Shown: positions 2,751-62,924 of the stretch, one piece after another
Numbering within the stretch: the stretch's first letter is position 1
How the letters are laid out: each line of letters starts with the position of its first letter
DNA from: Blastocatellia bacterium
Lineage (GTDB): Bacteria; Acidobacteriota; Blastocatellia; UBA7656
Length of the DNA: 64,000 nt
Direction: 5' to 3'
Assembly: GCA_045807765.1 (NCBI GenBank)
Contig: JBJMGU010000011.1
Location: 25,398-89,397 of the forward strand
Made by a program: the position numbers and the translations under genes
Notes under the pieces: model-generated
The model's input: the letters and a program-made list of their open reading frames with translations, nothing else
Told to the model about the DNA's origin: nothing
Databases searched by the model: none

Positions 2751-5054
2751 ATGACGAAGGCAGTATTGCTGCGCGGCGGCCTGGCCGTCGCCCTTTTTTT
2801 GTCGCTGTTATTGCCGCCGGTGGCGTTTCGCGCCACGGCGGAGAGCGATGCGATTCAACTCGCCGTTGACACGGCGAATTTCAATCAAGACGGGCTGCTG
2901 GTGCTGTTCGGCAGCACCCGGCGACAGGGCGAGATCGGCTTACCGGTCGCTGCCGGCGACGTCACCGGCGATGGCCGCGCCGATGTGCTGTTTGGCGGCA
3001 TGTATGGCAGCAGCGACCCGTTCACCAATAACGGCACCGTCAACGTCTACCTGAGCGATGGCCGTGACAGCGGCTTCATCAATCAAGCCGACCACCCGGC
3101 CAATCTTTTTCGCATCCTCGGCAGCGGCTCAGGTGACCTGCTCGGCACCTCTTCTTCAATCAATGCGGACGTCAACCACGACGGCCTGCGCGACATCCTG
3201 ACCTGCGCGGCGTTGCAGGATGGGCCGAATGGTTTTAATGCCGGCGCCGCGTATGTCGTCTATGGCAAGCCGAATTTCAGCGGCGACATCAACCTTGCCT
3301 CATCGCCGGCGGGCGTTACTGCCATCTACGGCCCGCAGGCCGAGGGGCGCATGGGCATCTGGTGTGACGAAGGCGATGTGGACGGCGACGGCTTTGCCGA
3401 CATCGTGATCGGCTCGGATCAGATCAACACCGCCGCGGGCCATCACGTCGGCGGCGCGTATATCGTTTTCGGCGCGGCCAACCTGCCTGCTGAAATTAAT
3501 CTCGCCTCACCGCCCGCCGGTGTGCGGACGGCGCGCATCGTTGGCGTCCGCGAAGAAGATCACTGGGGCGGCGCCCTGCAAGTCGGCGACGTCAACAATG
3601 ACGGTATCAGCGACATCATCATCGGCGCTTCGATAGACCGTGACTCCGGCTCGTACGTCACCGTGCAAGACCAGGTGAGCGGGCATAACTTTTTTGCCGC
3701 AGGCAACAATGGCAGCCGACCGCTGTGCGGCGAAGTCTATGTCATCTACGGCCAGCGCAACTGGCCGGCTACGACCGACCTCGGCGCGCCGCCGGCGAAC
3801 GCCACGCACGTCATCGGCGCGCACGCCCATGACTTCCTCGGCTCGCAGGTGCATTTCGGCGACCTCAATGGCGATGGTCGCACAGACCTGGTGCTGGGAG
3901 CGTTGCTGGCGCTGGCGCCGGACGACCGCGGCCAGACCGGCGCGGTCTATGTCATCTATGGCTCGGCCAGCTTGCCGGGCGCAACGATTGATCTGCTGAA
4001 CCCGGATGCGTCGGGCCAGCGCGTCGCGACCGTCTACGGCGTCCATGCGCTCGACTGCGCCGGCGACTCTGTGCGCAGCTTTGACATCAACAAAGACGGA
4101 TTGTCTGACCTGTTCATCGGTAGCCCGGAGCGCACCTTTGAGCTAAACGGCGAAGACCGCGACGACGCAGGCATGACCGAACTCATCTTTGGGCGGCGCG
4201 ACTTTCTGCCGTCGGTCATCAAGCTCTATGATCCGCCGGCGGGCCTGCCGATCTATCAACTGGCCGGCGCGCACGGCGAAGACCAGGGCCTAGAGGGCGG
4301 CGACGAGTTCTCTTATCGCCTGACCGGCGGTGACGTCGACGGCGACGGTTATGTGGATTACATCGCCAACGCCATGCACGGCGACGGCTTGAACAACAGC
4401 GTGCTCAACGCCGGCAACGTTTACATCTTCAGCGGCAAGAAACTGTCGGCGCGGCTCGGTCAACTGGCGCAGGACCCAAGCCCGGCGCCGCAGCTTAGCG
4501 GCGCCACGCTGACCTTGAATGGCCAGCCGGTGCAGCAAGCGAACGCCGGACAGACAGGATTGCGGATCACCATCAGCGGCACCAACCTGCGCAGCGATAC
4601 CGAGATCACGATCAATGGCACAGTCGCCGTGTCGCACCTGCAAGCCGGGACGCCGGCGACGATCACCGTCGAGCTGGACGAAAACCCGAGCATCAGAAAC
4701 AGCGCCGGGCAGCTCGTCGTCAGCGCCCGCAACACGGCGCCGCCGGCTTCCGGCGCTTCCAATCAAGTGATAGCCGGCACGCTCGTTGGGCCGCACATCG
4801 ATTCAGTAAAGATCAAGAAGAAAGGCTCGGGAGCGCTGGTGCTGAAAATCTTCGGCTCGAACTTCCCGGCCAACGTCACCGTCGAGGTGCGCGGCGACAA
4901 CTTCAGCTCGAACATCGCCGTGTTTGGCGAAACCGATTTCATTTCGCTGAAGATCCCCGCCGCCGTGGCGCCGTCATCGGGTACTGTGCTGCGCATCATT
5001 GTGCGCACCCCCGCCGGCATCGCCTCGAACGAAGTGACGAAGACGGTTCCTTAA
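2751..5054 (+). CDS. Secreted FG-GAP/integrin-alpha-like beta-propeller repeat protein with C-terminal IPT/TIG-like domains
   Basis: Signal peptide followed by many repeats of the GDVxGDGxxDxxxG type (FG-GAP). The C-terminal region (ITISGTNL...TINGT; KIFGSNF) is IPT/TIG-like. 767 aa. Confidence 0.75.
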   Translation: MTKAVLLRGGLAVALFLSLLLPPVAFRATAESDAIQLAVDTANFNQDGLLVLFGSTRRQGEIGLPVAAGDVTGDGRADVLFGGMYGSSDPFTNNGTVNVYLSDGRDSGFINQADHPANLFRILGSGSGDLLGTSSSINADVNHDGLRDILTCAALQDGPNGFNAGAAYVVYGKPNFSGDINLASSPAGVTAIYGPQAEGRMGIWCDEGDVDGDGFADIVIGSDQINTAAGHHVGGAYIVFGAANLPAEINLASPPAGVRTARIVGVREEDHWGGALQVGDVNNDGISDIIIGASIDRDSGSYVTVQDQVSGHNFFAAGNNGSRPLCGEVYVIYGQRNWPATTDLGAPPANATHVIGAHAHDFLGSQVHFGDLNGDGRTDLVLGALLALAPDDRGQTGAVYVIYGSASLPGATIDLLNPDASGQRVATVYGVHALDCAGDSVRSFDINKDGLSDLFIGSPERTFELNGEDRDDAGMTELIFGRRDFLPSVIKLYDPPAGLPIYQLAGAHGEDQGLEGGDEFSYRLTGGDVDGDGYVDYIANAMHGDGLNNSVLNAGNVYIFSGKKLSARLGQLAQDPSPAPQLSGATLTLNGQPVQQANAGQTGLRITISGTNLRSDTEITINGTVAVSHLQAGTPATITVELDENPSIRNSAGQLVVSARNTAPPASGASNQVIAGTLVGPHIDSVKIKKKGSGALVLKIFGSNFPANVTVEVRGDNFSSNIAVFGETDFISLKIPAAVAPSSGTVLRIIVRTPAGIASNEVTKTVP

Positions 5055-5167
5055 ATGATGAACGATGAATGATGGATGATGAATTAAGAGAGGAAACGGC
5101 AGGGGATTGTCTATAGATAATCCGGCTTCCGCTTCCTCTTCCGTTCATCATTCATCATTCATCATTA
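5055..5167. repeat. Hairpin element, family A, copy A1 (more divergent)
   Basis: Left arm aatgatgaacgatgaatgatggatgatgaattaag begins 1 nt after the TAA stop of the FG-GAP gene. Right arm is ccgttcatcattcatcattcatcatt. Confidence 0.75.
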
Positions 5168-6318: not shown

Positions 6319-7296
6319 ATGATGCATAAGCGGCAATTGATCCTACTGATGGTGCTGGCACTGCTGGCGCCTGTGGCCCAGGCTGACACCATTCACCTGA
6401 AAAACGGCAGTGTGCTCAAGGGCAAGGTGGCGAGCTTTGCCGACGATCAGTTCATCGTCATGCTCGACACCGGCTCTGGACGTTATCTGAGCCGGGCGAT
6501 GGTCTATGTCGGCGACGTGGCGCGCATCGAGTTCGAGGGTGCGCCCGCGGGAAGCGCCGAAGGTGCCATGCGGGACGCGTCGCCGGTGCGCCCGAGCGAA
6601 ACCAACAGCACGCGCCCGAGCGACGCCGTGCCCGTCCGCGACACACCGACCGAAGCCCGCGAAACGGCGCGCCCGACGGTCTTGCCGGACCTGCCGCGCA
6701 ACACGCAGCCAGAGCGGCCTACGCGCAACCCAGAAACCACCGAGGCCCAACCGACCGCCCAGCCCGATGTGACGCCTGCTGAAAAGCCTGCCGAGAGCAA
6801 GTCCACGAAACCGTTCGACCGCACTACGGATGCCGATAAGCCCGCGGCCAACCCGCCCGCCGACCAGCCGCCCGCCGAAACCGAGCGGCCCCCGGCGCGC
6901 AAGCTGACCGGCCAGGTGCGCTCGGCAACGATTGACGTGATCGGCAAGCGCGACTGGACGAGCACCGGCCTGATCGTCAAGCGCGGCGACCGCATCCGCA
7001 TTAACGCCAGTGGCGCGGTGACGCTCGACCCGGCAAGCGGACGCACGACGGGGCCGGAAGGCACCACCGATATCACAGACGGCAAGAAGCTGATGGCCGA
7101 ACAGCCTACGGGCGCGCTGATCGGTGTCATCGGCGCCGATAACGACGATTTCATCTTTATCGGCAAATCGTCGGAGTTCACGGCGACGCGCGACGGCCTG
7201 CTCTTCCTGTCGGTGAACGAAGGCAACCTCGGCGACAACGTCGGCTCTTTCAAAGCGCTCATCGAAGTGCAGTCGCAGAGCAAAGGTAGGCAGTAG
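6319..7296 (+). CDS. Secreted protein: N-terminal small domain, Pro/Thr/Glu-rich linker, C-terminal LecA/PA-IL-like lectin beta-sandwich
   Basis: Signal peptide (LILLMVLALLAPVAQA) and a low-complexity PT-rich linker of about 120 aa. The C-terminal region (GDRIRINASG...GALIGVIGADND...NLGDNVGSFKALI) matches the spacing of conserved residues in the PA-IL (LecA) fold. The stop codon TAG lies inside the repeat element at 7286. Confidence 0.6.
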   Translation: MMHKRQLILLMVLALLAPVAQADTIHLKNGSVLKGKVASFADDQFIVMLDTGSGRYLSRAMVYVGDVARIEFEGAPAGSAEGAMRDASPVRPSETNSTRPSDAVPVRDTPTEARETARPTVLPDLPRNTQPERPTRNPETTEAQPTAQPDVTPAEKPAESKSTKPFDRTTDADKPAANPPADQPPAETERPPARKLTGQVRSATIDVIGKRDWTSTGLIVKRGDRIRINASGAVTLDPASGRTTGPEGTTDITDGKKLMAEQPTGALIGVIGADNDDFIFIGKSSEFTATRDGLLFLSVNEGNLGDNVGSFKALIEVQSQSKGRQ

Positions 7297-7392
7297 GCGG
7301 TAGGCAGTTCGTAATGCACACCTGGATGGCGGCGACGCGGCGGAACGATTAAGGATCGGAAAACTGCCTACCGCCTACCGCCTACTGCCTAC
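7286..7392. repeat. Hairpin element, family B (tandem GTAGGCAG / CTGCCTAC arms), copy B1
   Basis: Left arm gtaggcagtaggcggtaggcag (7286-7308) and right arm ctgcctaccgcctaccgcctactgcctac (7365-7392) are inverted tandem 7-8-mers. The left arm supplies the last codons and the stop of the upstream gene. Confidence 0.8.
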
Positions 7393-7789
7393 TTCTCTGT
7401 AACACCTATTTTGCTTGACTTGCTCCATCCCTTAAAGTAGCCTGTGCTTCTCGCATTCCCTTTCTCAGATCTTTGCTGCGCCACGGGCCGGATGAGTTGA
7501 ATAGTTGCGCCGGTTGCGGCACGACAAACGGCAAGCTTCGGCTGCCGCTTTGAAGAAGGGGATTGTGGGACTGCTCATTATCAGGTTGTTTCGATTTCAC
7601 TCATGCTCGCACGACCGCAACGGCGTTGCCGTGCGCCAGGAGTGTCGGATCGGCGAGAGGCGGTCGCGCTGCTTCCATTCGTATGGCCCGCAACCTCGCG
7701 CGTCTCTCCCCGCGCCATCCGCCGGGTGGAGCGCGCACGCTTCACGTTGGAACCAGTGAGAAACATTTACATCACAGAGAGGCAGGAAT

Positions 7790-13815: not shown

Positions 13816-13823
13816 AAAAGCCC

Positions 13824-13933
13824 GACGCGGCGACGCGGGGACGCGGGGACGCGGCGAGGGAAAGAGACAGAGCTAACCGCTTGTCTTCCTTTCCCTGCGT
13901 CCCCGCGTCCCCGCGTCACTCTTCCCGCGTCAC
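13824..13933. repeat. Hairpin element, family C (tandem GACGCGGG / CCCGCGTC arms)
   Basis: gacgcggcgacgcggggacgcggggacgcggcgagggaaag ... ctttccctgcgtccccgcgtccccgcgtcac. It follows the VIT-vWA stop directly and probably acts as a terminator before gltX. Confidence 0.8.
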
Positions 13934-29189: not shown

Positions 29190-29197
29190 GTAAATCA

Positions 29198-29432
29198 GTA
29201 GCAGTAGGCAGTAGGCAGGCGATTTCTAAGCTCCGTTAGGAGCGTAATGTTTATAGTCGTCGCGGCGCTTAAACAATCAAGCTCCGTAGGAGCGGAATGT
29301 CAACATCGCGCTCCTACGGAGCTTGATCTTTATTGGAATGTCTTGACTATAAACATGGCGTCCCTACGGGACTAGGTAACTGCCTACTGCCTACTGCCTA
29401 CTGCGTACTGCCTGCTGCCTACTGCCTACTAC
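29198..29432. repeat. Hairpin element, family B, copy B2 with nested inner palindromes (gctccgtaggagcg motif three times)
   Basis: Outer arms are gtagcagtaggcagtaggcag (29198-29218) and ctgcctactgcctactgcctactgcgtactgcctgctgcctactgcctactacc (29380-29432). There is an inner perfect palindrome gatcaagctccgtaggagcg...cgctcctacggagcttgatc. The right arm overlaps the stop of the convergent gene at 29429. Confidence 0.8.
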
Positions 29433-31165
29433 CTCGTCACATTGCCGCAATCCATTTCGGTGCCGTTGTCGGTGCTGCTCCAGTGCAGGCGATTCCAGCC
29501 GCCATTGTTCTGCTCGGAGAAAGTCATTCCATAAAAGTAACAGGTGCCGTCGTTGCGTTTGACGGCGACCGCGCCGTTGATGGCGCGGCGCGTGATGATG
29601 CCGCTGATCGGATGACGGTAGAGCGTCCACTCGCGCTCGGTGATGACGGCGCGCACAGGTACGCCGGGCTTGCCCTGGTCGGTCAACATGCCGCGCGTCG
29701 CCTCGACCATGGCGCGCTCAAGAACCGGGTCGCTCTTGACCGCCCTGGGCAAAAAGACATTCTTCAATGCGATCTTGTGATAAGCGATGGCGCGCTCAGC
29801 CATCTTCTCTTGGCCGTTCGAGCAATCAATCTCGAACTCGCCTTCGGCAAGGTCGTGGCGGGAACTCATATAGATGGCGCTGACGCGGAAGCCGAGCGTG
29901 TGGCTGCGCGGTGAGCATTCGGCGAGCAGCCTGGCGTAACGTGACGAGCCTTCGCATTCTTTCGCCGTCTCAAGTGCCGGCAGCACCTCAATCGGCATGA
30001 ACGTCCACTGCTCCATTGGCTTAGTCATTGGATAATTGAAGCTGGTCATCTCGTTGCCGTCGAGGAAGACGGTCATCTGCATTTCGGTATCACCGGAATG
30101 CGCGCCGTCGGCCATCTCGGCAATCGTCCCTTTGAAGTAGGCCGTCGCATAAACTGTATCGGCGAGCGAAAACGTTTTGGCGACTGCCGACACCTCTTCC
30201 TGGCCGGCGACCAGCGGCTTGCGGCTGTAGACGACCTTCCCGGTGTTCTGCTTGTGGAATGCGCCGGCGTAGACTTTGCTGCCGAGATCGCGCTCGACCG
30301 CGCCGACAATAGCTTCGGCATCCTTGCGAATCCTGAGCGCCTGCGATTGATCGGGGAACGACAACAGCACGCCGTTGGCAAGCATCAGGGCGATGTCTGC
30401 GGCCTCGGTCGCTGCGCCGACTGCGCCGGCACCCTTCTTCTTTTCAACGTAGGCTTTCTCGATGGTGGCGTTGATCTCGCCGATCAAAAAGCTACGCACG
30501 AACTCGTCGTACTCTTTCGGGAATTTCGTCAGCAGTTGCTCGACGTGGTCGCTGATCTCGTTGTCGGTGCGCAGGCCGGGATGTTTGGCGAGCGCGTCCT
30601 TGACCTTCTTGATGGTCTCGCCATAGCCCAGCTCTTTGCACGATTCAAAATAGCGCTCGGCGTCGCCCTTCGTCTGTGTGTAGATGCCTTTCCAATAGGT
30701 CTGCGGAATCAGGTGCTCTGACGCGTAGGCCATTTTGCTGATGAAGGCTTTGATCTCGTCGAGCGAGTCGTCGTCGGCCTTGCGATCATTGGTCCGGCTG
30801 TCATTCGCCTTGCGGTCATTGACTGCGCTGTCATTCTCGTCTTCGCTCAACAACCGGCTGTAACCGGCGATCTCATGCTCATATGCCGCGGTCGAATAAT
30901 CGCGGTAGAGACTTTTGATGCCACCGATCAGCTCTTTGGCGTACTTCGCCGCGGCGCGTGCGCCTTCGATGTCGGGCGGATTCTCTTTTAGCTCTTTCCG
31001 CAGATCACTCATAGCCTGTTCGAGGCGGCGCACTTCGATGCGGCTGTCGGTTGAAATGCTTGGCTTGCGCTTTGGCACCGATACTTCGATCTTGATCTGT
31101 GTGGCGGCGAGCGGCTCTAAGGCGAACAGCACCGTCAGCGTCCAGATAGCAAATAAGCGTGTCAT
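29429..31165 (-). CDS. Hypothetical secreted protein (Lys/Glu-rich, lower GC than neighbours)
   Basis: The ORF spans 29429..31180. The probable start is MTRLFAIWTLTVLFALEPLAA, a signal peptide. I recognise no domain. Codon usage is AT-richer than the surrounding genes. Confidence 0.55.
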   Translation of the reverse strand: MTRLFAIWTLTVLFALEPLAATQIKIEVSVPKRKPSISTDSRIEVRRLEQAMSDLRKELKENPPDIEGARAAAKYAKELIGGIKSLYRDYSTAAYEHEIAGYSRLLSEDENDSAVNDRKANDSRTNDRKADDDSLDEIKAFISKMAYASEHLIPQTYWKGIYTQTKGDAERYFESCKELGYGETIKKVKDALAKHPGLRTDNEISDHVEQLLTKFPKEYDEFVRSFLIGEINATIEKAYVEKKKGAGAVGAATEAADIALMLANGVLLSFPDQSQALRIRKDAEAIVGAVERDLGSKVYAGAFHKQNTGKVVYSRKPLVAGQEEVSAVAKTFSLADTVYATAYFKGTIAEMADGAHSGDTEMQMTVFLDGNEMTSFNYPMTKPMEQWTFMPIEVLPALETAKECEGSSRYARLLAECSPRSHTLGFRVSAIYMSSRHDLAEGEFEIDCSNGQEKMAERAIAYHKIALKNVFLPRAVKSDPVLERAMVEATRGMLTDQGKPGVPVRAVITEREWTLYRHPISGIITRRAINGAVAVKRNDGTCYFYGMTFSEQNNGGWNRLHWSSTDNGTEMDCGNVTR

Positions 31166-37493: not shown

Positions 37494-37539
37494 TCGCGAT
37501 ATCTGCCCCTATAGCGGTTTGCAAATGCATGGAGCCTTA

Positions 37540-37611
37540 GCCACGAAGGCACGAAGCCACAAAGCCACACAATCTTTTTTGTGTTTCTTGGTGTCTTCGT
37601 GGCTTGGTGGC
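37540..37611. repeat. Hairpin element, family E (tandem GCCACGAAG/CACAAAG units), copy E1
   Basis: gccacgaaggcacgaagccacaaagccacacaa-tctttt-ttgtgtttcttggtgtcttcgtggcttggtggc. It lies between convergent genes and is a probable bidirectional terminator. Confidence 0.75.
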
Positions 37612-37644
37612 GATTCCTCTCACTAAGCTCATAGGAAATCCGCT

Positions 37645-38943
37645 TTAGGTGCGGTTGAAGCGCCGCGCTTTGAATTCGTAGCGCGGCAGCGAATTGGGCG
37701 CCGCTTGCTCAAGGCTGACGCGAATGCCAAACTGGCGGCGGAAGCCTGCGAGCAGGGCGCGGGCGGTTTCGGCAAACGGCGCGGCGTCTGCGGTTTCCAG
37801 GCGAATCAGCAGATCATCCATGCCGGCGACACGGTGGACGCGGACTTCGTATTCGATGACTTCGGGCAAGCCGCGGATCAGGTTATCAATGGCGCTCGGA
37901 TAAAGGTTGACGCCACGCACGATCAGCATATCGTCGGCTCGGCCCAGCACGCCGCCGCGAATGCGCGCAAAGCCGCGCCCGCAGGCGCACGGCTCGCGCG
38001 TCAGCTCGACCAGATCGCCCGTGCGATAGCGCAGCACAGGCATGCAGCCGCGCCCGAGGTTGGTGATGACCAGCTCGCCCCGCTCACCTTCTGCGACCGC
38101 CGCGCTGTTTGCCGGATCGATGACGTCAAAGATGAACTCGGCTTCGTTTAGATGAATCGCGCCCGCCTGCGCTTCGCAATCGAAAGCCCACGCGCCGACC
38201 TCTGTAGCGCCCGCGTGGTCGAAGCAGGTCGCGCCCCACGCCGTTTCAATCGCCTGCTTGACGGCGGGAAGACTCGCGCCCGGCTCGCCCGCGTGAATCA
38301 TCCGCCGAATCATTGAAGCGCGCAGATTGATGCCCTGCCGTTTGGCGACTTCGGCGAGGTGCAGCGCGTAAGTCGGCGTCGAGATCAACACCGTGCAGCC
38401 GTTATCAATCAATGCCTGTAAGCGTTGCTCGGAATTCATGCCGCCGCCCGCAACCGCCATCGCGCCGACGTGCCACGCGCTGGCAATCGCCGTCCAGTGA
38501 CTGATGAACGGCCCAAACGAAAAGGCGCAGAAGACGACATCGCCCGCATTGATTCCCGCACCGCGATAGACCATGCCCCAGCAGCGCGTCCACCAGTCCC
38601 AGCTCTCCTGCGTGTCGAGCCATCGCAGAGCGCGGCCTGTCGTTCCCGATGTCTGGTGAAGGTAACGATAGCGCGTCAGCGGATAGGTCAAGAGCCTGCC
38701 GAACGGCGGGTGCGCGGCCTGCTCTTCGACCAGCTCGGCTTTGGTCGTGAAGGGCAGGGCATCGAGGTCTTCGGGCTGCTCGATGCGCGCCAGCTCGACG
38801 CCTGCGGCGCGCGCTTTGGCTTGATAAAACTCGTTCGTTGCCAGCTCAGCCATCAGCAAGCGCAGCCGCTCGCTCTGCCACTGGCGCAGGCCGTCGCGTC
38901 CAAGCGTTTCAAGCTCGCGGTTGTAAAACTGTGACCCGTTCAT
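37645..38943 (-). CDS. Phenylacetate--CoA ligase family (PaaK-like / coenzyme F390 synthetase-like adenylate-forming enzyme)
   Basis: Adenylation motifs are YLHQTSGTTGRALRW and AGEPGASLP, with a C-terminal PaaK-type domain. 432 aa. Confidence 0.8.
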   Translation of the reverse strand: MNGSQFYNRELETLGRDGLRQWQSERLRLLMAELATNEFYQAKARAAGVELARIEQPEDLDALPFTTKAELVEEQAAHPPFGRLLTYPLTRYRYLHQTSGTTGRALRWLDTQESWDWWTRCWGMVYRGAGINAGDVVFCAFSFGPFISHWTAIASAWHVGAMAVAGGGMNSEQRLQALIDNGCTVLISTPTYALHLAEVAKRQGINLRASMIRRMIHAGEPGASLPAVKQAIETAWGATCFDHAGATEVGAWAFDCEAQAGAIHLNEAEFIFDVIDPANSAAVAEGERGELVITNLGRGCMPVLRYRTGDLVELTREPCACGRGFARIRGGVLGRADDMLIVRGVNLYPSAIDNLIRGLPEVIEYEVRVHRVAGMDDLLIRLETADAAPFAETARALLAGFRRQFGIRVSLEQAAPNSLPRYEFKARRFNRT

Positions 38944-40779: not shown

Positions 40780-41712
40780 CTAGCTTTGAATGCCAAGCTC
40801 GTCGAGAGTACGCTCGTCGTCGCGCCAGTGCTCGCGCACTTTGACGAACAGGCCGAGAAAAACATGGCGACCGAGCAGATGCTCAATGTCGTGACGCGCG
40901 CGGGTGCCGATCTCTTTCAGGAGCGCGCCGCCTCTGCCGATGATGATGGCGCGGTGCGACGGTCGCTCGACATAAATCAGGCAATGGATGCGCGTCACCT
41001 CTTCGCTCTCGTCCCATCTTTCAGTCACCACCGCCGTGACGTAAGGAAGCTCATCGCCGGTCGCTTCGAGAATCTTTTCGCGCACCAGCTCGGCGACGAT
41101 AGCGCGCTCGGGCTGGTCCGTCAGCTCGTCTTCGGGATAGAGCGGCGGCCCTTCGGGCAGGTACGGGAGTGCCTTCTCAATCAACAGCTCGACGCCGTCG
41201 CCGGTGAGCGCCGAGAGCGGAATGACTTCGGCGAACTCGCGCTCGCCTGTGTAAGCGGCGATGCGCGGCAGCAGGTGCGACTTGTCGGCGAGCGCATCCA
41301 CTTTGTTGAGGATCAAAAAGGCCGGCGTCGCGACCGGCTTCAGCATGTTCAGGACGAAGCGGTCGCCGGCGCCCATCGGCACCGAAGCGTCCACCATCAG
41401 CAGGATCAAATCAACCGTGGCGAGCGCGTCGCTGACGATGCTCATCATGCGGCGGTTGAGCCGATAGCCGGGCTTGTGAATGCCGGGCGTATCTAAAAAA
41501 ACGATCTGCCCCGTGGGCCGCGTCAGAACGCCGCTGATGCGCGTCCGCGTCGTCTGCGGCTTCGAGCTGACGATGGCGATCTTCTCGCCGATCAGGTGAT
41601 TGAGCAAAGTGGATTTGCCGGCGTTCGGGCGACCGATCAGCGCAACGACGCCCGATTTGTAGCCCGGTTTACTTTCGGAGGGTTGATTATCCTGGCTCTC
41701 CTGATTCGACAT
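40780..41712 (-). CDS. era: GTPase Era
   Basis: G1 GRPNAGKST, G3 DTPG and G4 NKVD motifs, plus a C-terminal KH domain (RAIIIGRGGALLKEIG). The start is at MSNQESQ; the ORF track extends upstream to 41781. Confidence 0.9.
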   Translation of the reverse strand: MSNQESQDNQPSESKPGYKSGVVALIGRPNAGKSTLLNHLIGEKIAIVSSKPQTTRTRISGVLTRPTGQIVFLDTPGIHKPGYRLNRRMMSIVSDALATVDLILLMVDASVPMGAGDRFVLNMLKPVATPAFLILNKVDALADKSHLLPRIAAYTGEREFAEVIPLSALTGDGVELLIEKALPYLPEGPPLYPEDELTDQPERAIVAELVREKILEATGDELPYVTAVVTERWDESEEVTRIHCLIYVERPSHRAIIIGRGGALLKEIGTRARHDIEHLLGRHVFLGLFVKVREHWRDDERTLDELGIQS

Positions 41713-41719
41713 AACTCGG

Positions 41720-43030
41720 CTATCCCTCGACCGGCTCGCGCCCCTGGATTTCAGTTTCACCGGCTGGCGTCGTGGCGTCAACCTCGCGCAGCCCGACGCG
41801 ATTGACGCGGTGCGCGTCGGCTTCGACGACTTCGAACTGGATGCCGGCGAAGTCGATCTTTTCGCCGGCTGCCGGCACGCGCCCCAGCTTACGGATCAGC
41901 AGCCCGGCGACGGTCGTAAAATCGTCAGCCTCGATCTCTTGGTGAAACAGCTCCTCGACCTTCTTGATCTCGGCGCTGCCATCGATCAGGTACGAGCCGT
42001 CTTCGTTGCGGATGATCTGGGTGTCGGCGGCGGCGCGGTCTTCGTCTTCGATCTCGCCGACGATCTCTTCGATGATGTCTTCGACCGTCACCAGTCCGGC
42101 GACTCCGCCGTACTCGTCAATGACGATGGCGATCTGCACGTTGGCCTTCTGCATGTCTTCGAGCAGGTCTTGAATCGTCTTGCTCTCCGGCACGCAATAG
42201 GCCGGGCGCATGCATTCGGTGACCGGGCGATTGATCTTTTCGTCTTCGCAAAAGGCGAGCAGGTCACGAACGTAGACGACGCCTTCGATGTTATCGATCT
42301 GCGCGCCGTAGACGGGAATGCGCGAATGCTTCGACTCAATGATGAGGCGGCGGGCCTCGGCGACTGTGGCCGTGGCTTCGATGGCCACCATCTGCAAGCG
42401 CGGGCGCATGATCTCAGAAACCAGTGTGTCGCGGAACTCGATGATCGACTGAATCAGCTCGCCTTCCGACTCTTCGATGATGCCTTCCTCTTCGCCGACA
42501 TCAAGGAAAGCCTGAATCTCGTCGAAGCTCTCTTCTTCGTCTGCTTCGGCGCTCGGCTCTTCTTCGGGCTCCGGCTTGCGCATGCGCTCAAGCAGCGCGG
42601 CGATGGGGCCGACAAAGATCGAGAAGAGGCGATAAAAGATTTTGAAGGGCGGCAGCAGTGCCCACAGCACGCCTTCGGGGTGATTGAGCGCAAGCAAGCG
42701 GGGCACGAACTGGCGGAACAGCACGATGACCAGAAAGACCGCGCCGAGCGTGAGCGGCACAACGCCGTGTGCCACGACGCTCGCCAGCATGTCGGCGACC
42801 ATGATGGCGATGGCGGCGATGGAAAGCTGCGTGCCGAGAATCAGCATCAGCTCGAAGCGCTGCCGATGTTCAAGCAACTCGTTGAAGAAGCGTCCGCGCC
42901 GCTGTGCTTCACGCTCGGCGGCCATCACCCGTCGCGCCACTTCGCTGAGCGATTCATAGGCGCTCTCGATGGTCGAAAGAAAGACCAGCACCACGAGCGC
43001 CGTGCCGGTCACAATTAACTCAGTCAACAT
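41720..43030 (-). CDS. corC: HlyC/CorC-family (CNNM-type) transporter: DUF21 membrane domain, CBS pair, CorC_HlyC domain
   Basis: 436 aa with an N-terminal 4-TM DUF21, tandem CBS domains and a C-terminal transporter-associated domain. Operon position ybeY-corC-era. Confidence 0.85.
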
Positions 43031-43043
43031 AACGCTTCGCTCA

Positions 43044-43122
43044 GGGGCTGGGGATTAGGGACTAGGGGCTAGTAAGAAAGAAGCGTTGAACGGCTGCTTT
43101 CCCGCTAGTCCCCAGCCCCTAG
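43044..43122. repeat. Hairpin element, family D (tandem GGGGCTN/ CTAG units)
   Basis: ggggctggggattagggactaggggctag ... cgctagtccccagcccctag. The right arm contains the ybeY stop codon (TAG). Confidence 0.75.
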
Positions 43123-43557
43123 AATCTTCTTCCGCAGTCGCAACTCCAGCCGATTCATCTCACCGTCGTCGGTTTCGTGGTCGTAACCGCAAAGGTGGAG
43201 CGTACCGTGGATGACCAGCTCGCTCAGTTCGCGGGCGAGCCCGTGGCCGGCTTCCCTGGCCTGACGCTGCGCCGTGTCGGTGGCGATCACAATGTCGCCG
43301 AGAAAGTCGGCGCTTTCAGATAAGCTGAAGCCCGCCTCGTCCTGCGCGTTTGCGACCGGGAACGATAGCACGTCGGTTGCGTAACCTTTGCCTCGGAATT
43401 CCCGATTCATTTTGCGGATGGCGCGGTCGCGCACAAAGGCGACGGTGAGTGCTGCCCCGCGCCAGCCCATCCCTTCGAGCGCGGCGGCGGCGACCCGCGC
43501 GATCTGCTCTGCATCTATGGCGCAGAGGCGTTGTCGGTTGACGACTTCAATCGCCAC
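43105..43557 (-). CDS. ybeY: rRNA maturation endoribonuclease YbeY
   Basis: 150 aa with the metal-binding motif HGTLHLCGYDH. Confidence 0.9.
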   Translation of the reverse strand: MAIEVVNRQRLCAIDAEQIARVAAAALEGMGWRGAALTVAFVRDRAIRKMNREFRGKGYATDVLSFPVANAQDEAGFSLSESADFLGDIVIATDTAQRQAREAGHGLARELSELVIHGTLHLCGYDHETDDGEMNRLELRLRKKILGAGD

Positions 43558-45907
43558 TGGCTTCCTTCAACGGCGCGACGGGCAACGCTTCGCTGCGTGT
43601 CGCCGCCGCCACATCAGCGGGCGTCACCTGCGACAGCACGGCGGGCGCGCCGGCGCGGTTGAAATCATAGCCCGGATAGGCGATGCGGTGATGATGAATG
43701 CCCATCAAAACTTTGACGAAGCTGTCGGCGATCATCTTCAACTCGCGTTGCGTGATGTCGCATTCATCGAACTGGCCGTCGTCGCGGATGCGCCCGATGA
43801 TCATCTCGATCATGTTGCGCAGCTTCGATGGGTTCGGCTCCTGCACCGTGCGCGCGGCGGCTTCGACCGAGTCGGCGATCATGATGATGGCGGCTTCCCT
43901 GGTTTGCGGCTTCGGGCCGGGATAACGGAACTCGCGCTCAAGCGCTGCATTGTCCATATCGCCGATCTGCTTGCGCGCCTTGTAGTAAAAATATTTCATC
44001 AGCCCGGTGCCGTGGTGCTGCGGAATGATGGCGATAATGCGCGGCGGCAGCTTGTGCTTGCGGGCCAGATCAACACCTTGCTTGACATGGTTGACCAGCA
44101 CAATCGATGACATCTTCGGCGATAACTGATCGTGACGGTTCTCCATGTAGGTCTGGTTTTCGACGAAGTAGGTGGGGCGCACGCTCTTGCCGATGTCGTG
44201 ATAATAGCAAGCGACGCGCGCAAACAGCGCGTCTGCGCCGATGGCTTCGGCCCCGGCTTCGGCCAGCAGTCCGACCATAATCGAGTGGTGATAGGTTCCC
44301 GGCGCACGCTCGGCCAGTTGCTTCAACAACGGCAGGTTGAGGTTTGATAGCTCCAGCAGCTTGATGCTCGTGGTAATCTCAAACAACCACTCGAACAGCG
44401 GCAGCAACAGCGACGCCACCATCGTCGCCAGCACGCCGCCCATAAAGCCGCAGACGACGTCGAAAAGCACCAGCCAGAAGCGCGCTTCGTTGGCGCCCAG
44501 CAGGTCGAGCGCCAGCGCCGTCGTCGCGTTGACGCCGCCGATCCATAAGCCCGCCCAGACCAGCGCCGTGCGGTCGCGGCAATCTTTCAGGTAATAGATT
44601 GCTCCGGCGCTCGACATCAGCGTGAACGCCGCCAGGTAGACATTGCCCGAATACATGCCGACGAAGACGGTCAGAAGCGCAGAGAAGACGAAGGCCGCGT
44701 GGGCGTCCGTAAGAATCGTCACCAGCACCGCGCCGACCGCCATCGGCGCGAGGTACTTGTAAGCGATCGGCGAATTGAACGGTGCGGTTGTCGCCCAACT
44801 GCTCATCGCCGCCGCCACCGCAAAGTATATCCGCCCGAGGCCCAGCGTGATGACGAAGCAGGCGATTTGCAAAAGGAAGTGGCGGCGCACGCGCAGATGT
44901 TGGCGCTGATAACGAACAAGGTACTGCCACAGCACCAGCGTTAGCATCATGACAATGATCACTGTGCCGCCGAATTCCAGGGCGCGCTGACCGATGGGCC
45001 GCGTGCGCGCCGCTTCCGCGAGCAGCAAGGCTTTTGCCGGGCTGACCGTTTCGCCGCGCGCAACAATCGGCTCGCCTTTTTTGGCGACGACGACGACCGG
45101 CTTGATCTGTTCGCGCGCGGCATCGCGGCGGCGTTGCGTTTCGCTTTCGTTGTACTCGATGTTCGGGACGATGAGCGAGCCGAGGATTTCGCCCATCAGC
45201 TTGCGCTCGCGCGGCTCGTAATCGGCGGGCCAGATGAGCTTCTCCGAGCGCAGCGAGGCGCTCGCCGTGAGCTTGTCGTTAATGCTGCCGAGATCGCTAA
45301 CGACGGTCTCCTGATCGTTACGCACGTCGCGGCGCATAATGGCGACGGCGCCGAGGCGGCGGAACTGGCTGCGGCTGCTGATGATCGGCGACATCGCCAC
45401 AGATTCCAGATGCTCGATCATCAGTTGTTCGAGCTCTGGGCTGAAGCGGTGGCGGGCGAGCACGGCGATCTGCTCGGGCTCAAGTGCGATGCCGCTGCGC
45501 TCTTCGATCTGGCCGTGCAGGTCGTCTATCGAAACGCCAGCCCCGGCTTCGCGCCCGGCGGTGAATAGCTCTTGCAGGCTGGCGACAGCGTCGCGGGCGC
45601 CCTTGGGATTGAAGTCAAAGACCAGCAGCATGGAGGCGGCAGCCTGATCGCGCAGCCGCCGGGTCTCGGCGGTGTCTTCGATCTTCACGTCTTCGGGCGC
45701 AATGATGTCGGCGGCGGCGACGCTGCCGACGGGAAGCTGTTGGATGAGTGGCCGCTGATAATCTCTGAGCAGCAGCATCGACAGCGCGACGATGATAAAC
45801 AACCCGACGCTGGCATCAATGATCGCCTGATCGGAAAGGCCCGCCGAAAAGCGTTTGACGCCATTGACGACCTCGCGCGGCTTCGATCTGGAAGATGCCT
45901 TTCGCAT
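43547..45907 (-). CDS. pgpH: Membrane-anchored HD-domain phosphohydrolase of the PgpH/YqfF (7TM receptor with intracellular HD hydrolase) family
   Basis: 7TM region followed by an HD/HDIG domain (HHSIMVGLLAEAG...YYHDIGK...IIPQHHGT). The true start is probably MRKASSRS at 45905-45907, because the ORF-track N-terminal extension runs into IS sequence. Confidence 0.8.
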   Translation of the reverse strand: MRKASSRSKPREVVNGVKRFSAGLSDQAIIDASVGLFIIVALSMLLLRDYQRPLIQQLPVGSVAAADIIAPEDVKIEDTAETRRLRDQAAASMLLVFDFNPKGARDAVASLQELFTAGREAGAGVSIDDLHGQIEERSGIALEPEQIAVLARHRFSPELEQLMIEHLESVAMSPIISSRSQFRRLGAVAIMRRDVRNDQETVVSDLGSINDKLTASASLRSEKLIWPADYEPRERKLMGEILGSLIVPNIEYNESETQRRRDAAREQIKPVVVVAKKGEPIVARGETVSPAKALLLAEAARTRPIGQRALEFGGTVIIVMMLTLVLWQYLVRYQRQHLRVRRHFLLQIACFVITLGLGRIYFAVAAAMSSWATTAPFNSPIAYKYLAPMAVGAVLVTILTDAHAAFVFSALLTVFVGMYSGNVYLAAFTLMSSAGAIYYLKDCRDRTALVWAGLWIGGVNATTALALDLLGANEARFWLVLFDVVCGFMGGVLATMVASLLLPLFEWLFEITTSIKLLELSNLNLPLLKQLAERAPGTYHHSIMVGLLAEAGAEAIGADALFARVACYYHDIGKSVRPTYFVENQTYMENRHDQLSPKMSSIVLVNHVKQGVDLARKHKLPPRIIAIIPQHHGTGLMKYFYYKARKQIGDMDNAALEREFRYPGPKPQTREAAIIMIADSVEAAARTVQEPNPSKLRNMIEMIIGRIRDDGQFDECDITQRELKMIADSFVKVLMGIHHHRIAYPGYDFNRAGAPAVLSQVTPADVAAATRSEALPVAPLKEASGD

Positions 45908-45919
45908 AAAATGATGAAT

Positions 45920-46984
45920 AGACCTCGTGCGCAGTAAGAATGACGGAGGCCCCAGCCTCACTAGTGGAGCATCAATCACTCAGGCTGCTGCTTGCATCAG
46001 TCGCTCCTGCGTCCGTAGATTCGCCAACCCGCACACCGTGCGGCAGACTTGATCGTATGCTTTTTCTCGATGCCGATACTTGCTGCCCATCACTTGATAC
46101 TTCTTCACTCGCGAGATCGCATGCTCAACGACGATTCGCCGCTTCGCCAGTCGCCGATTCCGCCGCTTCTGGCTGGCCGTCAATGGATGATGCTTACTTG
46201 GCTTCTTCGGCAATTCCACGGCCCGTTGCGGATAATGTTTGGCCAAGCCCATATATCCCTTGTCGGCAGCAATCTGCCAGTCGTCGGGCAAGGCGGCCTC
46301 CACCCCGGAGCGGTGAAACAAACTCAGGTCGTGGGTCCGCCCACCGACGCTCTTCGACACATGGCCAATCCAGCCGTTGGCCAAGACCGTCATCTGCACC
46401 TTGCGCGTATGCCGCTTCTTCTTGCCCGAATAGCGATGCTTGCGCTTGGTCTTGTTTTGCGGGCGGTTTATGGGCTGTTCGGTGGCATCAACAATGACCT
46501 CGCGCAACTCTGGATATTGCTTGAAAAGCTCGTCCAGGCTGCCAATCTTACGGCGGCGCTGGGCGGCGGGCGGCTTAGGGGCCAAGTGTCGGCGGGGCTG
46601 GGCTGGCACGGGCAACTGTTGTTCAAGAAGCGGCAAGAGCGTGCGCAGGTTGCGGGAGATGTTACTGGCATCAAGGCCAAAGAGATAGCCGAGCAGATCG
46701 TTGGTCAAGTAAAGACGCAAAAAGACCAGGGTGAGCAGGGTGCGGTCAGGCAGCGACAAGCGGAAGCCGCAGCCGCCACCGACTTGGCGCTGACGGTCTG
46801 GGCGGGCCAGGCGCTGGGCATTGAACTGTGGGTAGGCCTTGTGCATCTGGCTAAGCAAGCGATCAAACTGCGAGATGGACAGGCCCGCAAAGCGGAGAAA
46901 GTGCGGCGGACGTTTACGGAGCTTTTCGACGTTGAGCATGATTTTGTCAGTATGCAATAAGTTCGCTTATTGCGCACGAGGTCT
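45920..46984 (-). mobile_element. IS5-family (IS4/IS5 superfamily) insertion sequence, about 1065 bp, 19/20-bp terminal inverted repeats (TAGACCTCGTGCGCAGTAAG / CTTATTGCGCACGAGGTCTA), 3-bp AAT target duplication
   Basis: The TIRs and flanking AAT direct repeats were read directly. A single transposase ORF spans the element. The inner right end has the palindrome GCAATAAG-ttcg-CTTATTGC. Confidence 0.8.
45980..46957 (-). CDS. IS5-family DDE transposase
   Basis: 325 aa. The C-terminal signature RRNRRLAKRRIVVEHAISRVKKY (Y-R-E-K region) is typical of IS5/IS4 DDE transposases. The protein is basic and includes GKKKRHTRK. Confidence 0.8.
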   Translation of the reverse strand: MHTDKIMLNVEKLRKRPPHFLRFAGLSISQFDRLLSQMHKAYPQFNAQRLARPDRQRQVGGGCGFRLSLPDRTLLTLVFLRLYLTNDLLGYLFGLDASNISRNLRTLLPLLEQQLPVPAQPRRHLAPKPPAAQRRRKIGSLDELFKQYPELREVIVDATEQPINRPQNKTKRKHRYSGKKKRHTRKVQMTVLANGWIGHVSKSVGGRTHDLSLFHRSGVEAALPDDWQIAADKGYMGLAKHYPQRAVELPKKPSKHHPLTASQKRRNRRLAKRRIVVEHAISRVKKYQVMGSKYRHREKAYDQVCRTVCGLANLRTQERLMQAAA

Positions 46985-46985
46985 A

Positions 46986-47078
46986 ATGATGAATGATGAA
47001 TGATGAACTGCCGGAGCTAGCGCCTATTGCGGTGCCACCCGTCTCCTTAATTCATCATTCATCATTTCTCATTCATCG
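46986..47078. repeat. Hairpin element, family A (tandem ATGATGA / TCATCAT arms), copy A2; the outermost part of the left arm is displaced to 45901-45919 by the IS insertion
   Basis: aatgatgaatgatgaatgatgaactgccggagctagcgcc...ttaattcatcattcatcatttctcattcatcg. The loop and arm are near-identical, in reverse orientation, to copy A3 at about 62826-62924. Confidence 0.85.
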
Positions 47079-47331
47079 TTTTTCCCAGATGCCGGCGGCG
47101 CACCACTGCTCGTCTACCTTTGATTCAGCGGCCATCTTCTTCACATCATCGCTCGGCAGCCGGCGGCCAAAGCGCTTCTCCCGGTCAGCAATCAAAAATG
47201 TCGTTGCCGCCACCGTCGCCACACAGGTCGCGTAATCGCGCGCGTCGGCCTGAGCGGTTTCGCCGAGCGAATACGCATGTACAGGTGGACGGAGAGAATC
47301 TTAGCGGCGTGCCGCTGCGCGAGGAGGATTC

Positions 47332-47586
47332 ATGCTCAACACGCCTTATCCTTACCTGCAAGCGTCGGGCAATCACCTGGTTGATATGCTCGAAACCTTA
47401 ATTGATATGTATGCCAATGCCGCCGCCATCATCGGCGCGGTGTTGTTGATCGTGCTCGTGTGGCTTTGCCTTTCCGAATTGCAGCGGTCATCAATAGCAA
47501 AGCGCGCCGGCGGCTCTTTAGCTAAGCGTCCGCCCGCCCCGCGACGATTAGGCGAGCGGCGCTGGCTTGAAGAATCTTCGACCTGA
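47332..47586 (+). CDS. Small hypothetical membrane protein (84 aa, one TM helix)
   Basis: Strong SD GAGGAGG 4 nt before the ATG. Has a hydrophobic segment AAAIIGAVLLIVLVWLCL. It lies upstream of the ECF-STK pair. Confidence 0.35.
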   Translation: MLNTPYPYLQASGNHLVDMLETLIDMYANAAAIIGAVLLIVLVWLCLSELQRSSIAKRAGGSLAKRPPAPRRLGERRWLEESST

Positions 47587-47675
47587 GCAGCGGGCGGCGG
47601 GTTGTTGACTTCGACCCGGCCAGTGAATATGCTCTGGCAGGCTCAAGCCCCCTACTCGACACCACCTGTGAGGAG

Positions 47676-48248
47676 ATGATGCCCACACGGTCGCCGGCTG
47701 ATATCACCCAACTGCTCGCCGACTGGCGCAATGGCGACCGCGGCGCGCTCGACCGCCTGACGCCGCTCGTCTATGACGAGCTCAGGCGGCTGGCGAACGG
47801 TTACCTGCGCGGCGAGCGCCGCAATCACACGCTACAGGGGACGGCGCTGGTTAACGAAGCTTACATACGGCTGCTCGGTCATGGGAATCAGGACTGGCAG
47901 AACCGCGCGCATTTCTTCGGCGTCGCGGCACGCTTGATGCGCGAAATTCTGGTTGACCACGCGCGCCGTCACAACGCGGCCAAGCGCGGCAGCGGCCAGT
48001 CGCCTGTGTCGCTCAGCGAGGCGGCCATCTTTTCGGTCGAGCGCGCCTCTGAACTGGTCGCCCTTGATGATGCTTTGCAGAGGCTTGCCGAGCTTGACCC
48101 GGAGCGCAGCCGCATCGTCGAGCTGCGTTACTTCGGCGGCTTGAGCATCGAAGAGATTGGCGAAGTCGAGCATATCTCTGTGGCCACCGTGCGCCGCCGA
48201 CTGCGCATGGCTGAAGCCTGGCTACACCGCGAGATGAATCAAACGTAA
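47676..48248 (+). CDS. ECF sigma factor of the Sigma70_ECF (PF07638-like, kinase-associated) type
   Basis: 190 aa with N-terminal ITQLLADWRNGDRGALDRLTPLVYDELRRLA and a C-terminal region 4 (RSRIVELRYFGGLSIEEIGEVEHISVATVRRRLRMAEAWL). A Ser/Thr kinase gene follows it. Confidence 0.8.
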   Translation: MMPTRSPADITQLLADWRNGDRGALDRLTPLVYDELRRLANGYLRGERRNHTLQGTALVNEAYIRLLGHGNQDWQNRAHFFGVAARLMREILVDHARRHNAAKRGSGQSPVSLSEAAIFSVERASELVALDDALQRLAELDPERSRIVELRYFGGLSIEEIGEVEHISVATVRRRLRMAEAWLHREMNQT

Positions 48249-61669: not shown

Positions 61670-62824
61670 CTAGACCTTGTTGGCCTTCAGCTCGGCGAGC
61701 GAGTAATGCGTATCGCGCCAGTTGATGCCGTCATTCTGTATCGTCTTGCGCGTCGCGTTCCACATCAGGTAGAGGAACAGCAAAACCGCAAAAGGGAAGA
61801 GCAGGGCATACCGGCGGCGCGCGCCGACCAGCCGCGCGCCGCGCGCGTAGCCCGCCATCACGATCAACACAGAGGCCAGGTTCAGCCACCGCGTCGCGCC
61901 ATGCGTCACAAACACGCCGATGAAAGGCCAGAGGAACCAGACGAGTTGCAGCAGCGCCCCACCCGCCACGAGCGCCAGGCTGTATTCAAGCCCCGCGAAG
62001 AAATTCTTCTCCGTGCCGGCAATCAGCTCGCGCACGGATGCGTACCATTCGACAGAGATCATGCCGACGCCATGCAACACCTCTTGCCGGTAGCCGCTCT
62101 GCTTAAGCACCTTGCCGAGCTTCATGTCGTCATCAGGCCGCATGCGAATCTTTTGATGACCGCCGATCTGACGATAGGCTTCCGCCCGCACCAGATTGAA
62201 TGCGCCAATGCCGATGAAGCGCGAGCTGCGCGGGTCCGCCGCCTTCCAGGGTTTCGCGAAAAGCGCAAAGAACAGGCCGAAGACGCCGAGAAAAGCATTC
62301 AACATCACGCCCGGCATATGTCCTTCCGGCCCCATCGTAATGTGGTCGCGGCGTTCGCGCTCGGCATAGCTCACGGCTCGCCGGATCGCCGTCGGATGCA
62401 TGATGATGTCCGCATCGGTGAATAGAAGAAAGTCGCCCGTCGCCTGCCGCGCCGCGAAGTCGAGCGCGTGATTCTTGCCGAGCCAGCCCGGCGGCAGCTC
62501 CGTGATGTGCAGCGGGCGCAGCCGCACGTTGCGTGCGGCCATGCGGTCGAGGATGCCGCCCGTCTCGTCGGTCGAGCGGTCGTCGGCGACAATGACTTCG
62601 AGCGGGGAGTAATCTTGATTGAGCACTGACTGCAAGGCTTCTTCGATGTGGCGGGCCTCGTTGCGGGCGGCGATGACGACAGAGACGCGCGGCCAGACCG
62701 TTTGTTCGAGCGATGCGATATCTTTAAGTGAACGGATGCGCCGGTTGCCCTGCCATAGATCGATGGTCATGAGGACGTAAGCTACGACCGTGACGGCGGC
62801 GAGATAGAACAGAAATTTTCCCAT
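61670..62824 (-). CDS. Family 2 glycosyltransferase (membrane-associated)
   Basis: GT2 motifs VSVVIAARNEARHIEEALQSVLNQDY, DDRSTDET and DADIIMHP, with C-terminal TM helices. The start is at MGKFLFYL; the ORF-track extension to 62908 is read-through of repeat A3. Coordinates +/-1. Confidence 0.8.
   Translation of the reverse strand: MGKFLFYLAAVTVVAYVLMTIDLWQGNRRIRSLKDIASLEQTVWPRVSVVIAARNEARHIEEALQSVLNQDYSPLEVIVADDRSTDETGGILDRMAARNVRLRPLHITELPPGWLGKNHALDFAARQATGDFLLFTDADIIMHPTAIRRAVSYAERERRDHITMGPEGHMPGVMLNAFLGVFGLFFALFAKPWKAADPRSSRFIGIGAFNLVRAEAYRQIGGHQKIRMRPDDDMKLGKVLKQSGYRQEVLHGVGMISVEWYASVRELIAGTEKNFFAGLEYSLALVAGGALLQLVWFLWPFIGVFVTHGATRWLNLASVLIVMAGYARGARLVGARRRYALLFPFAVLLFLYLMWNATRKTIQNDGINWRDTHYSLAELKANKV

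Positions 62825-62918
<94 letters not shown>

Positions 62919-62924
<6 letters not shown>

Follow-up and report, generated by a model that had tools for sequence, protein, structure and literature searches.

Deletion and other rearrangement by homologous recombination between copies of an insertion sequence (IS) are well documented, and an IS can also drive the genes downstream of it, either from outward or hybrid promoters, as do IS1, IS2, IS10 and ISAba1, or by read-through from its transposase gene. Homing of IS elements to repetitive extragenic palindromic (REP) sequences is known in five IS families, IS5 among them (PMC1525189), and in the ISL2 group of that family ISDge6, 1122 nt long, is listed as IS5 (ISL2)-like, every copy having TCA as its direct repeat (PMC7674623). 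IS homing to palindromic repeats and IS-mediated deletion both being well known already, the element described here is a new example. It is found in a stretch of 64,000 nucleotides from a Blastocatellia bacterium (assembly GCA_045807765.1, contig JBJMGU010000011.1, positions 25,398 to 89,397 of the forward strand), which we call the window, and it lies inside a hairpin of ATGATGA repeats immediately upstream of the pgpH-ybeY-corC-era operon. Coming from a little-studied phylum (Acidobacteriota, class Blastocatellia), the element clearly exemplifies an IS homing to a short repeated intergenic element. Our best overall explanation, to which we give a probability of about 60% as a whole, is that the IS also marks a rearrangement junction; this explanation covers the identity of the element, its targeting, the breakpoint, a deletion between two IS copies and expression of the operon by read-through.

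The IS and its borders have the following parts:

45917..45919, no strand: AAT, first copy of the target-site duplication (AAT also in the related element L005)
45920..46984, minus strand: complete IS, 1065 bp, IS5 family, ISL2 group (terminal inverted repeats, AAT flanks, identical element on Logan metagenome contigs)
45920..45938, plus strand: transposase-distal inverted repeat on the pgpH side, AGACCTCGTGCGCAGTAAG (AGACC terminus common to ISDge6)
45946..45959, minus strand: weak terminator-like stem (GAGGCTGGGGCCTC then CGTCATTCTT) between the transposase stop and the IS end (terminator scan)
45980..46939, minus strand: transposase gene, 319 amino acids (aa) from its ATG (Pfam; exact protein on four metagenome contigs)
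46966..46984, minus strand: transposase-proximal inverted repeat, AGACCTCGTGCGCAATAAG (end comparison)
46985..46987, no strand: AAT, second copy of the target-site duplication (sequence reading)

As read from the sequence, the left end of the IS is AGACCTCGTGCGCAGTAAG, and the right end is the reverse complement of AGACCTCGTGCGCAATAAG. Both ends read AGACCTCGTGCGCA(G/A)TAAG, with the first 14 bp identical and 18 of 19 positions matching, giving 19-bp repeats with one mismatch. The IS carries a single long open reading frame (ORF), is self-contained, and includes no part of a host gene; a TTG upstream of the transposase ATG, at 46957, would give an alternative protein of 325 aa. The transposase matches the Pfam families DDE_Tnp_4 (5.6e-33), DDE_Tnp_1 (2e-13) and HTH_Tnp_4 (2.4e-13). 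When it is aligned with ISDge6 and with the transposase of L005, which comes from another Blastocatellia metagenome-assembled genome (MAG), the residues IVDATEQP, DKGY and VEH, conserved in ISDge6, are present around its catalytic DDE positions. The IS is intact and probably active.

The initial annotation had placed the element in the IS5 family, and this placement can be made more exact. The IS has a single DDE transposase with an IS5-type catalytic domain (Pfam DDE_Tnp_1 / DDE_Tnp_4), its size of 1065 bp falls within the range of about 0.85-1.2 kb of the ISL2 group, its inverted repeats are short, and its 3-bp duplication, AAT on both sides in the window as in L005, agrees with the 2-3 bp of that group. 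The closest annotated relative in a plasmid collection is an “IS5-like element ISDge6 family transposase” from Deinococcus geothermalis, with 39.6% identity over 98% of the query (tblastn). In its record ISDge6 reads TCA-AGACCCGCTGCG…CGCAGCAGGTCT-TCA, and so has AGACC…GGTCT termini and a 3-bp duplication. The cut-off of the NCBIfam IS5 equivalogs was not reached, the best match being to NF033581 (80.4 bits versus 140); these models cover other IS5 sublineages, and a match below the cut-off supports the superfamily, not those equivalogs. These features make the element a new member of the ISL2 group within the IS5 family.

The transposase gene and pgpH share the minus strand. The TGA that ends the transposase gene (45982-45980) stands in the pgpH frame and is followed by no further stop across the IS end, and this shared frame results in a nominal ORF of 810 aa (43547-45979). 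A transposase-pgpH fusion or read-through product was considered and rejected as probably a coincidence (roughly 10% chance), the 24 extra codons being without any supporting feature.

The hairpin that received the IS belongs to a family, here called A, of which it is the second member (A2). It is now split in two parts:

45908..45919, no strand: 12-bp outer arm piece AAAATGATGAAT between the IS and the pgpH ATG (pairs with 47071-47082)
46985..47083, no strand: remaining hairpin A2, with an (ATGATGA)n arm, a loop beginning CTGCCGGAGCTAGCGCC…, and a (TCATCAT)n arm (BLAST to the relative L016)

The 12-bp piece aligns with the arm adjoining the pgpH ATG in L011, a relative free of the IS. Once the IS and one AAT are removed, an arm of four heptamers, AAAATGATGAATGATGAATGATGAATGATGAAC, is restored and pairs with the right arm at 47050-47083, with a predicted energy of -51 kcal/mol for the reconstituted hairpin versus -41 kcal/mol for the remaining one. 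Rfam gives no match between 45000 and 48000.

The same target recurs at other copies. The exact 319-aa transposase is found on four short Logan metagenome contigs (L001-L004; SRR17459144, SRR17459146, SRR17459148 and SRR17459151), whose IS ends are those of the window and whose flanks are all ATGATGA or TCATCAT arrays; one flank, on L001, repeats the window's IS-pgpH junction. Exact-protein look-ups had no match for the 325-aa transposase (TTG start), corC, PgpH (786 or 810 aa), ybeY or P0244, a PgpH identical to that of the window. Scanning genome contigs with the transposase yielded a single relative, L005, and scanning viral contigs yielded no match. The L005 element has a transposase 85% identical (aa), the same ends and an AAT duplication, and it sits in GAAAATGATG-AAT-GATGAAAG in the opposite orientation relative to the heptamers, so the IS is found in either orientation with respect to the array. 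In the window and in L001-L005, all IS ends adjoin …ATGATGAAT or …TTCATCATT. Seven of the seven distinct junction flanks, representing at least five insertion events, thus lie in arrays at one phase, ATGATG^AAT^GATGAA. The survey amounts to about five insertion events, with at least three IS copies in the window's species and one in L005. Since only 14 of the 1196 AAT/ATT trinucleotides in the window outside the IS (about 1.2%) are in arrays, the association is not due to chance. Independent copies are found at the same position of a repeated intergenic palindrome, as in REP targeting, and their recurrence shows this IS lineage, in the copies surveyed, to insert sequence-specifically where two ATGATGA heptamers meet; such heptamers make up the arms of one family of intergenic hairpins in these Blastocatellia genomes. 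Two heptamers with no long arm seem sufficient in L005, and recognition thus appears to depend on sequence and not on structure. None of the loops of the other IS-flanking hairpins on the Logan contigs turned up in the window or in any compared locus. On L002 (SRR17459151), both flanks read …TTCATCATT toward the IS, which one 3-bp duplication cannot yield; this contig either mixes two IS copies or reflects IS recombination in that population.

Most of what the initial annotation had said of the insertion itself stands. Its location for the IS (45920-46984), with an AAT duplication in the ATGATGA array and 12 bp from the pgpH ATG, is confirmed, as is its view that hairpin arrays are targets of the IS, given that 7/7 flanks are in arrays at the same phase. 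It had made its case depend on terminal repeats and AAT being reproduced at other copies, and on the transposase ORF not being part of a longer host gene: the repeats and the AAT/ATT flanks do recur. Two details have to be corrected, for the terminal repeats exist but measure 19 bp with one mismatch instead of 20 bp, and the intact family-A left arm is indeed restored but with four heptamers, one more than had been written.

The DNA on the two sides of the IS comes from different places, as comparison with the relatives reveals:

L011 1151-1249; L017 5899-6000; L013 3895-4000; L006 3920-4000: orthologous phoH-pgpH spacer, in which the hairpin spans stop to start codon
47079..47282 of the window, minus strand: M28 peptidase remnant, residues 212-279 of 279, 68 codons, no start codon (tblastn, frame translations, Pfam of L016)

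In four relatives (PgpH identity 89-98%), phoH is followed by one hairpin and then by pgpH, the spacer being about 80-105 bp long and free of any IS. In L011 (PgpH 98% aa, 96% nt), the empty site, 99 bp long and free of the IS, runs from the phoH stop through one ATGATGA hairpin to the pgpH ATG; L017 (94.5% nt), L013 and L006 likewise have phoH, one hairpin and pgpH. The homology of the window to these relatives begins at the pgpH ATG, and tblastn finds no PhoH match anywhere in the 64 kb. On the other side of the IS, positions 46991-47249 align at 78% with L016 723-981 (BLAST), which holds the L016 hairpin and the 3′ end of an M28 gene, and the extracytoplasmic function (ECF) sigma gene of L016 is 88% identical to that of the window at 47676-48248. 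The L016 stretch presents a family-A hairpin with a recognisably orthologous loop, then the 3′ end of the convergent M28 peptidase gene. The hairpin at 46985-47083 is thus orthologous to the one between the PQQ/BamB-like gene and the M28 gene of L016, and not to the phoH-pgpH hairpin. Relative to L016, about 800 bp of the M28 region are deleted in the window; the deletion also took the start of the gene and most of the divergent intergenic region by a small ORF at 47332-47586. The 75-codon ORF at 47080-47305 has no Pfam or NCBIfam match on its own, and was identified only through L016. A simple insertion should have flanks that are contiguous in relatives free of the IS. Here the left flank belongs to the phoH-hairpin-pgpH locus and the right flank to the M28 locus of L016, and the IS therefore separates DNA of two ancestral loci, marking a break in the widely conserved phoH-pgpH-ybeY linkage. 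The initial annotation had the native promoter displaced by more than 1 kb, and this does not hold: the relatives have phoH upstream, the window has none, and the far side is another locus. The comparison with IS-free alleles that it had called for shows phoH, hairpin and pgpH in order, so the native upstream region is missing here and has not been shifted outward (or else the contig is mis-joined at the IS).

Within these loci, the phoH genes of four relatives (L011 2-1150; L012 and L013 1840-3894; L017 3826-5898) encode 684-690 aa, with a LAGLIDADG homing-endonuclease (intein-like) insert in the PhoH domain; that of L006 (2936-3919) encodes 327 aa and has no insert.

Assuming that the contig is correctly assembled, this copy of the IS occupies a breakpoint in synteny. 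The DNA toward pgpH, with the 12-bp arm fragment, would continue the ancestral phoH-hairpin-pgpH order, and the far side would be the hairpin of a different locus, downstream of the truncated M28 peptidase gene. We infer that two directly repeated IS copies, each in an ATGATGA arm, recombined and so deleted phoH and the native promoter. As both flanks are in native, direct orientation, a deletion between direct repeats is the simplest route; inversion, which was also considered, is less simple, the flanks having kept their native orientation. Recombination between IS copies is favored because they offer 1065 bp of identity versus about 30 bp for the arms, and because it explains why an IS sits in the junction hairpin. 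Several observations weigh against our overall explanation. The contig is from a MAG and the IS is multi-copy, and a mis-join at the IS would look like a rearrangement. On L001 the same IS-pgpH junction continues into another far-side hairpin, possibly the true order, yet L002 shows that such contigs can be chimeric. The restored arms are equal in length and have AAAA/TTTT ends, which fits a rearrangement between arms followed later by the IS. AAT/ATT is common to all the sites, so the duplication cannot separate a simple insertion from a recombinant IS: when all targets are alike, a tidy target-site duplication is no proof of simple insertion. Lastly, promoters of Acidobacteriota are poorly defined, and the missing sigma-70 consensus upstream of pgpH is weak evidence.

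The alternative that survives best, although we think it unlikely, is an assembly chimera: the contig would have been mis-joined through the multi-copy IS, the real IS being a simple insertion in the native phoH-pgpH hairpin, where it splits phoH from pgpH, with a second copy in the hairpin beside the M28 remnant. The PgpH of the window is identical to P0244 (NCBI MFL6273821.1), which comes from a Blastocatellia MAG and a 96-kb contig, and the species has at least three identical IS copies on which such a join could occur. On L001 the pgpH junction leads to another hairpin, whose flank type fits simple insertion, and the far-side flank of the window is on none of the four Logan contigs. However, assemblers usually break at such repeats and do not join across them, L002 mixes flanks and so makes L001 unreliable, the reconstituted hairpin is coherent, and the adjacent M28 deletion indicates real decay in the region, independent of any join. 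Short Logan contigs of this kind mix copies, and as read here they cannot settle the choice between chimera and rearrangement.

Somewhat less probable still is that the rearrangement came first, with directly repeated ATGATGA arms recombining or slipping so as to join pgpH to the M28-side hairpin and delete phoH, and with the IS inserting later. With the IS removed, the two arms agree in length and in phase and the stem is closed by AAAA/TTTT; many loci have identical arms, and the hairpins are exactly at the gene boundaries where the synteny of the relatives breaks. Yet in RecA-dependent recombination short repeats recombine far less readily than long ones, and with arms of about 25-30 bp versus an identical IS of 1065 bp, far less recombination would be expected. 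The presence of the IS in the junction hairpin would also be a coincidence, only one of the three family-A hairpins of the window carrying an IS. By far the least credible reading has the IS simply inserted into the hairpin native to this upstream site, with the native promoter about 1.1 kb upstream beyond the IS and an outward or hybrid promoter of the IS terminus driving the operon. The clean 3-bp duplication and the hairpin that can be reconstituted would suit it, as would the 12 bp to the ATG, a distance that forces transcription to come from within or through the IS. Against it, the DNA beyond the IS is not native, four relatives having phoH there, the far-side hairpin and the ORF remnant are orthologous to another locus, and neither the IS terminus nor the pgpH strand from the hairpin to the sigma gene has a promoter-like hexamer pair.

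A deletion between two IS copies would have consequences for the operon downstream, whose identification as pgpH-ybeY-corC-era in the initial annotation agrees with Pfam:

43547..45907, minus strand: pgpH, 786 aa, intact, first gene of the operon; 7TM receptor with HD domain, cyclic-di-AMP phosphodiesterase type (Pfam)
43105-43557, minus strand: ybeY (Pfam)
41720-43030, minus strand: corC-like (CNNM-CBS-CorC) gene (Pfam)
40780-41781, minus strand: era (Pfam)
40750-40729, minus strand: strong intrinsic terminator after era, closing the unit (terminator scan)

Both ybeY and era are essential in many bacteria. The pgpH ATG (45907-45905, minus strand) is exactly 12 bp (45908-45919) from the IS, and its position is that of the start in PgpH homologues of 87-98% identity. 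The spacer of the relatives is occupied by the hairpin from stop to start codon, with no space for a promoter, and from this anatomy pgpH is most likely co-transcribed with phoH. If the window contig is correct, the native promoter of the operon is gone and not shifted by 1 kb, and expression of ybeY/era has come to rely on a mobile element: a promoter does not fit in the 12 bp ahead of the ATG, and transcription has to start inside the IS or cross it. This much of the initial proposal, in which the IS terminus supplies an outward or hybrid promoter, is retained, but the promoter itself finds no support in the sequence: no sigma-70-like hexamer pair (at least 8/12) occurs near the pgpH-side IS terminus, although the sigma-70 consensus may not be that of Blastocatellia. 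Along the minus strand from 45908 to 47675 (IS terminus, hairpin and M28 remnant), there is no sigma-70-like promoter except a weak 8/12 match deep inside the IS, and a 9/12 match at 45819-45792 is inside pgpH and at chance level. The pgpH-ybeY-corC-era operon may instead be driven by read-through from the promoter of the co-oriented transposase gene, past the weak terminator-like stem. This is the likeliest driver, though we hold it with low certainty, and it is preferred because the transposase gene is co-oriented with pgpH and followed only by that stem (45959-45946), which has 5 pairs and a poor T tract, in a region that overall scored at chance level. An unrecognised outward promoter, or internal promoters serving ybeY and era, are possible.

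Downstream of era, gene content varies among the relatives. L006 appears to be without prmA-rsmE-paaK at this place (L006 9324-9461 versus window 37509-37647), and L017 (11422-11802) and L013 have an extra ORF of 126-127 aa between era and prmA. These differences after era are further changes of synteny at intergenic sites.

The window has two further family-A hairpins, at 5054-5166 and 62827-62923, both without an IS. The loop of hairpin A3 is homologous to that of A2 and inverted relative to the flanking genes. Start or stop codons lie directly against these hairpins: there is a TAA at 5050-5052 and a minus-strand ATG at 62823-62825, and near 62925 a stop falls within the arm. Further inverted arrays, with units of 7 or 8 bp, occur at 7286-7393, 29196-29434, 13823-13917 and 37539-37611, with the units GTAGGCA/ACTGCCT, CGACGCGG/TCCCCGCG and AGCCACGA/CTTGGTGG, and the ybeY-corC spacer contains an array of four AGGGACT units (43043-43072). 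Several hairpin families are therefore present in the genome, and this IS is seen only with the ATGATGA family. The phoH-pgpH spacer hairpin itself is built from ATGATGA/TCATCAT in L011, GTGACAA/TTGTCAC in L017, GTGACCA/TGGTCAC in L013 and GTTGTCA/ACTGGTT in L006: the heptamer unit varies among close relatives at the same site, and both arms change together. The L006 arms pair largely through G-U, and thus on the sense RNA strand only (RNAfold -32.8 versus -26.7 kcal/mol). This suggests a concerted turnover of the hairpins and a role at the RNA level.

A bolder view can be built on the homing and on the deletion, and we consider it improbable. The ISL2-group element would be a dedicated parasite of the heptamer hairpins in Blastocatellia operon spacers, recognising the ATGATGA repeat or a cruciform and landing between cistrons, and it would survive only when oriented so as to feed essential genes downstream. 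Recombination between IS copies would have removed phoH, so that ybeY/era now rely on the IS for their transcription, and the IS and the hairpins together would be a main engine of operon break-up and of changes in gene order in this lineage.

Set beside the known systems, the expression proposed here resembles other cases of IS-driven expression in that the IS is 12 bp from the start codon and co-oriented with the gene. Unlike IS1, IS2, IS10 and ISAba1, it has no recognisable outward -35 element or full promoter in its terminus, and the case is known from sequence alone. With regard to the rearrangement, the IS of the window is like those of documented IS-mediated deletions by homologous recombination, being at the exact breakpoint, with flanks that come from two ancestral loci and are in direct orientation. 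It differs from them in that no parental or reciprocal copies are observed and the duplication is uninformative. ISDge6 and the IS of the window each encode a single DDE transposase, about 320-335 aa long and with the domains HTH_Tnp_4 and DDE_Tnp_4, and they share a length of about 1.1 kb and the termini AGACC…GGTCT. The 3-bp repeat of ISDge6 is constant at TCA, and that of the window lineage is constant at AAT/ATT. The two elements are only about 40% identical (aa) and belong to different phyla, that of the window being from Acidobacteriota (class Blastocatellia), and ISDge6, for which homing to a repeated hairpin is not reported, has inserted into coding genes (PMC7674623). The closest parallel in target choice is with the IS that home to REP sequences or BIMEs (bacterial interspersed mosaic elements), namely IS1397, ISKpn1, ISPpu9/ISPpu10, ISRm22 and ISNm1106/IS1106, in which most or all copies are likewise at a fixed position in a short repeated intergenic palindrome. 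These IS use GC-rich REP sequences, whereas the target here is unusual: AT-rich ATGATGA heptamer arrays that form long hairpins between cistrons, with arms of about 30 bp, and that look more unusual than the IS itself.

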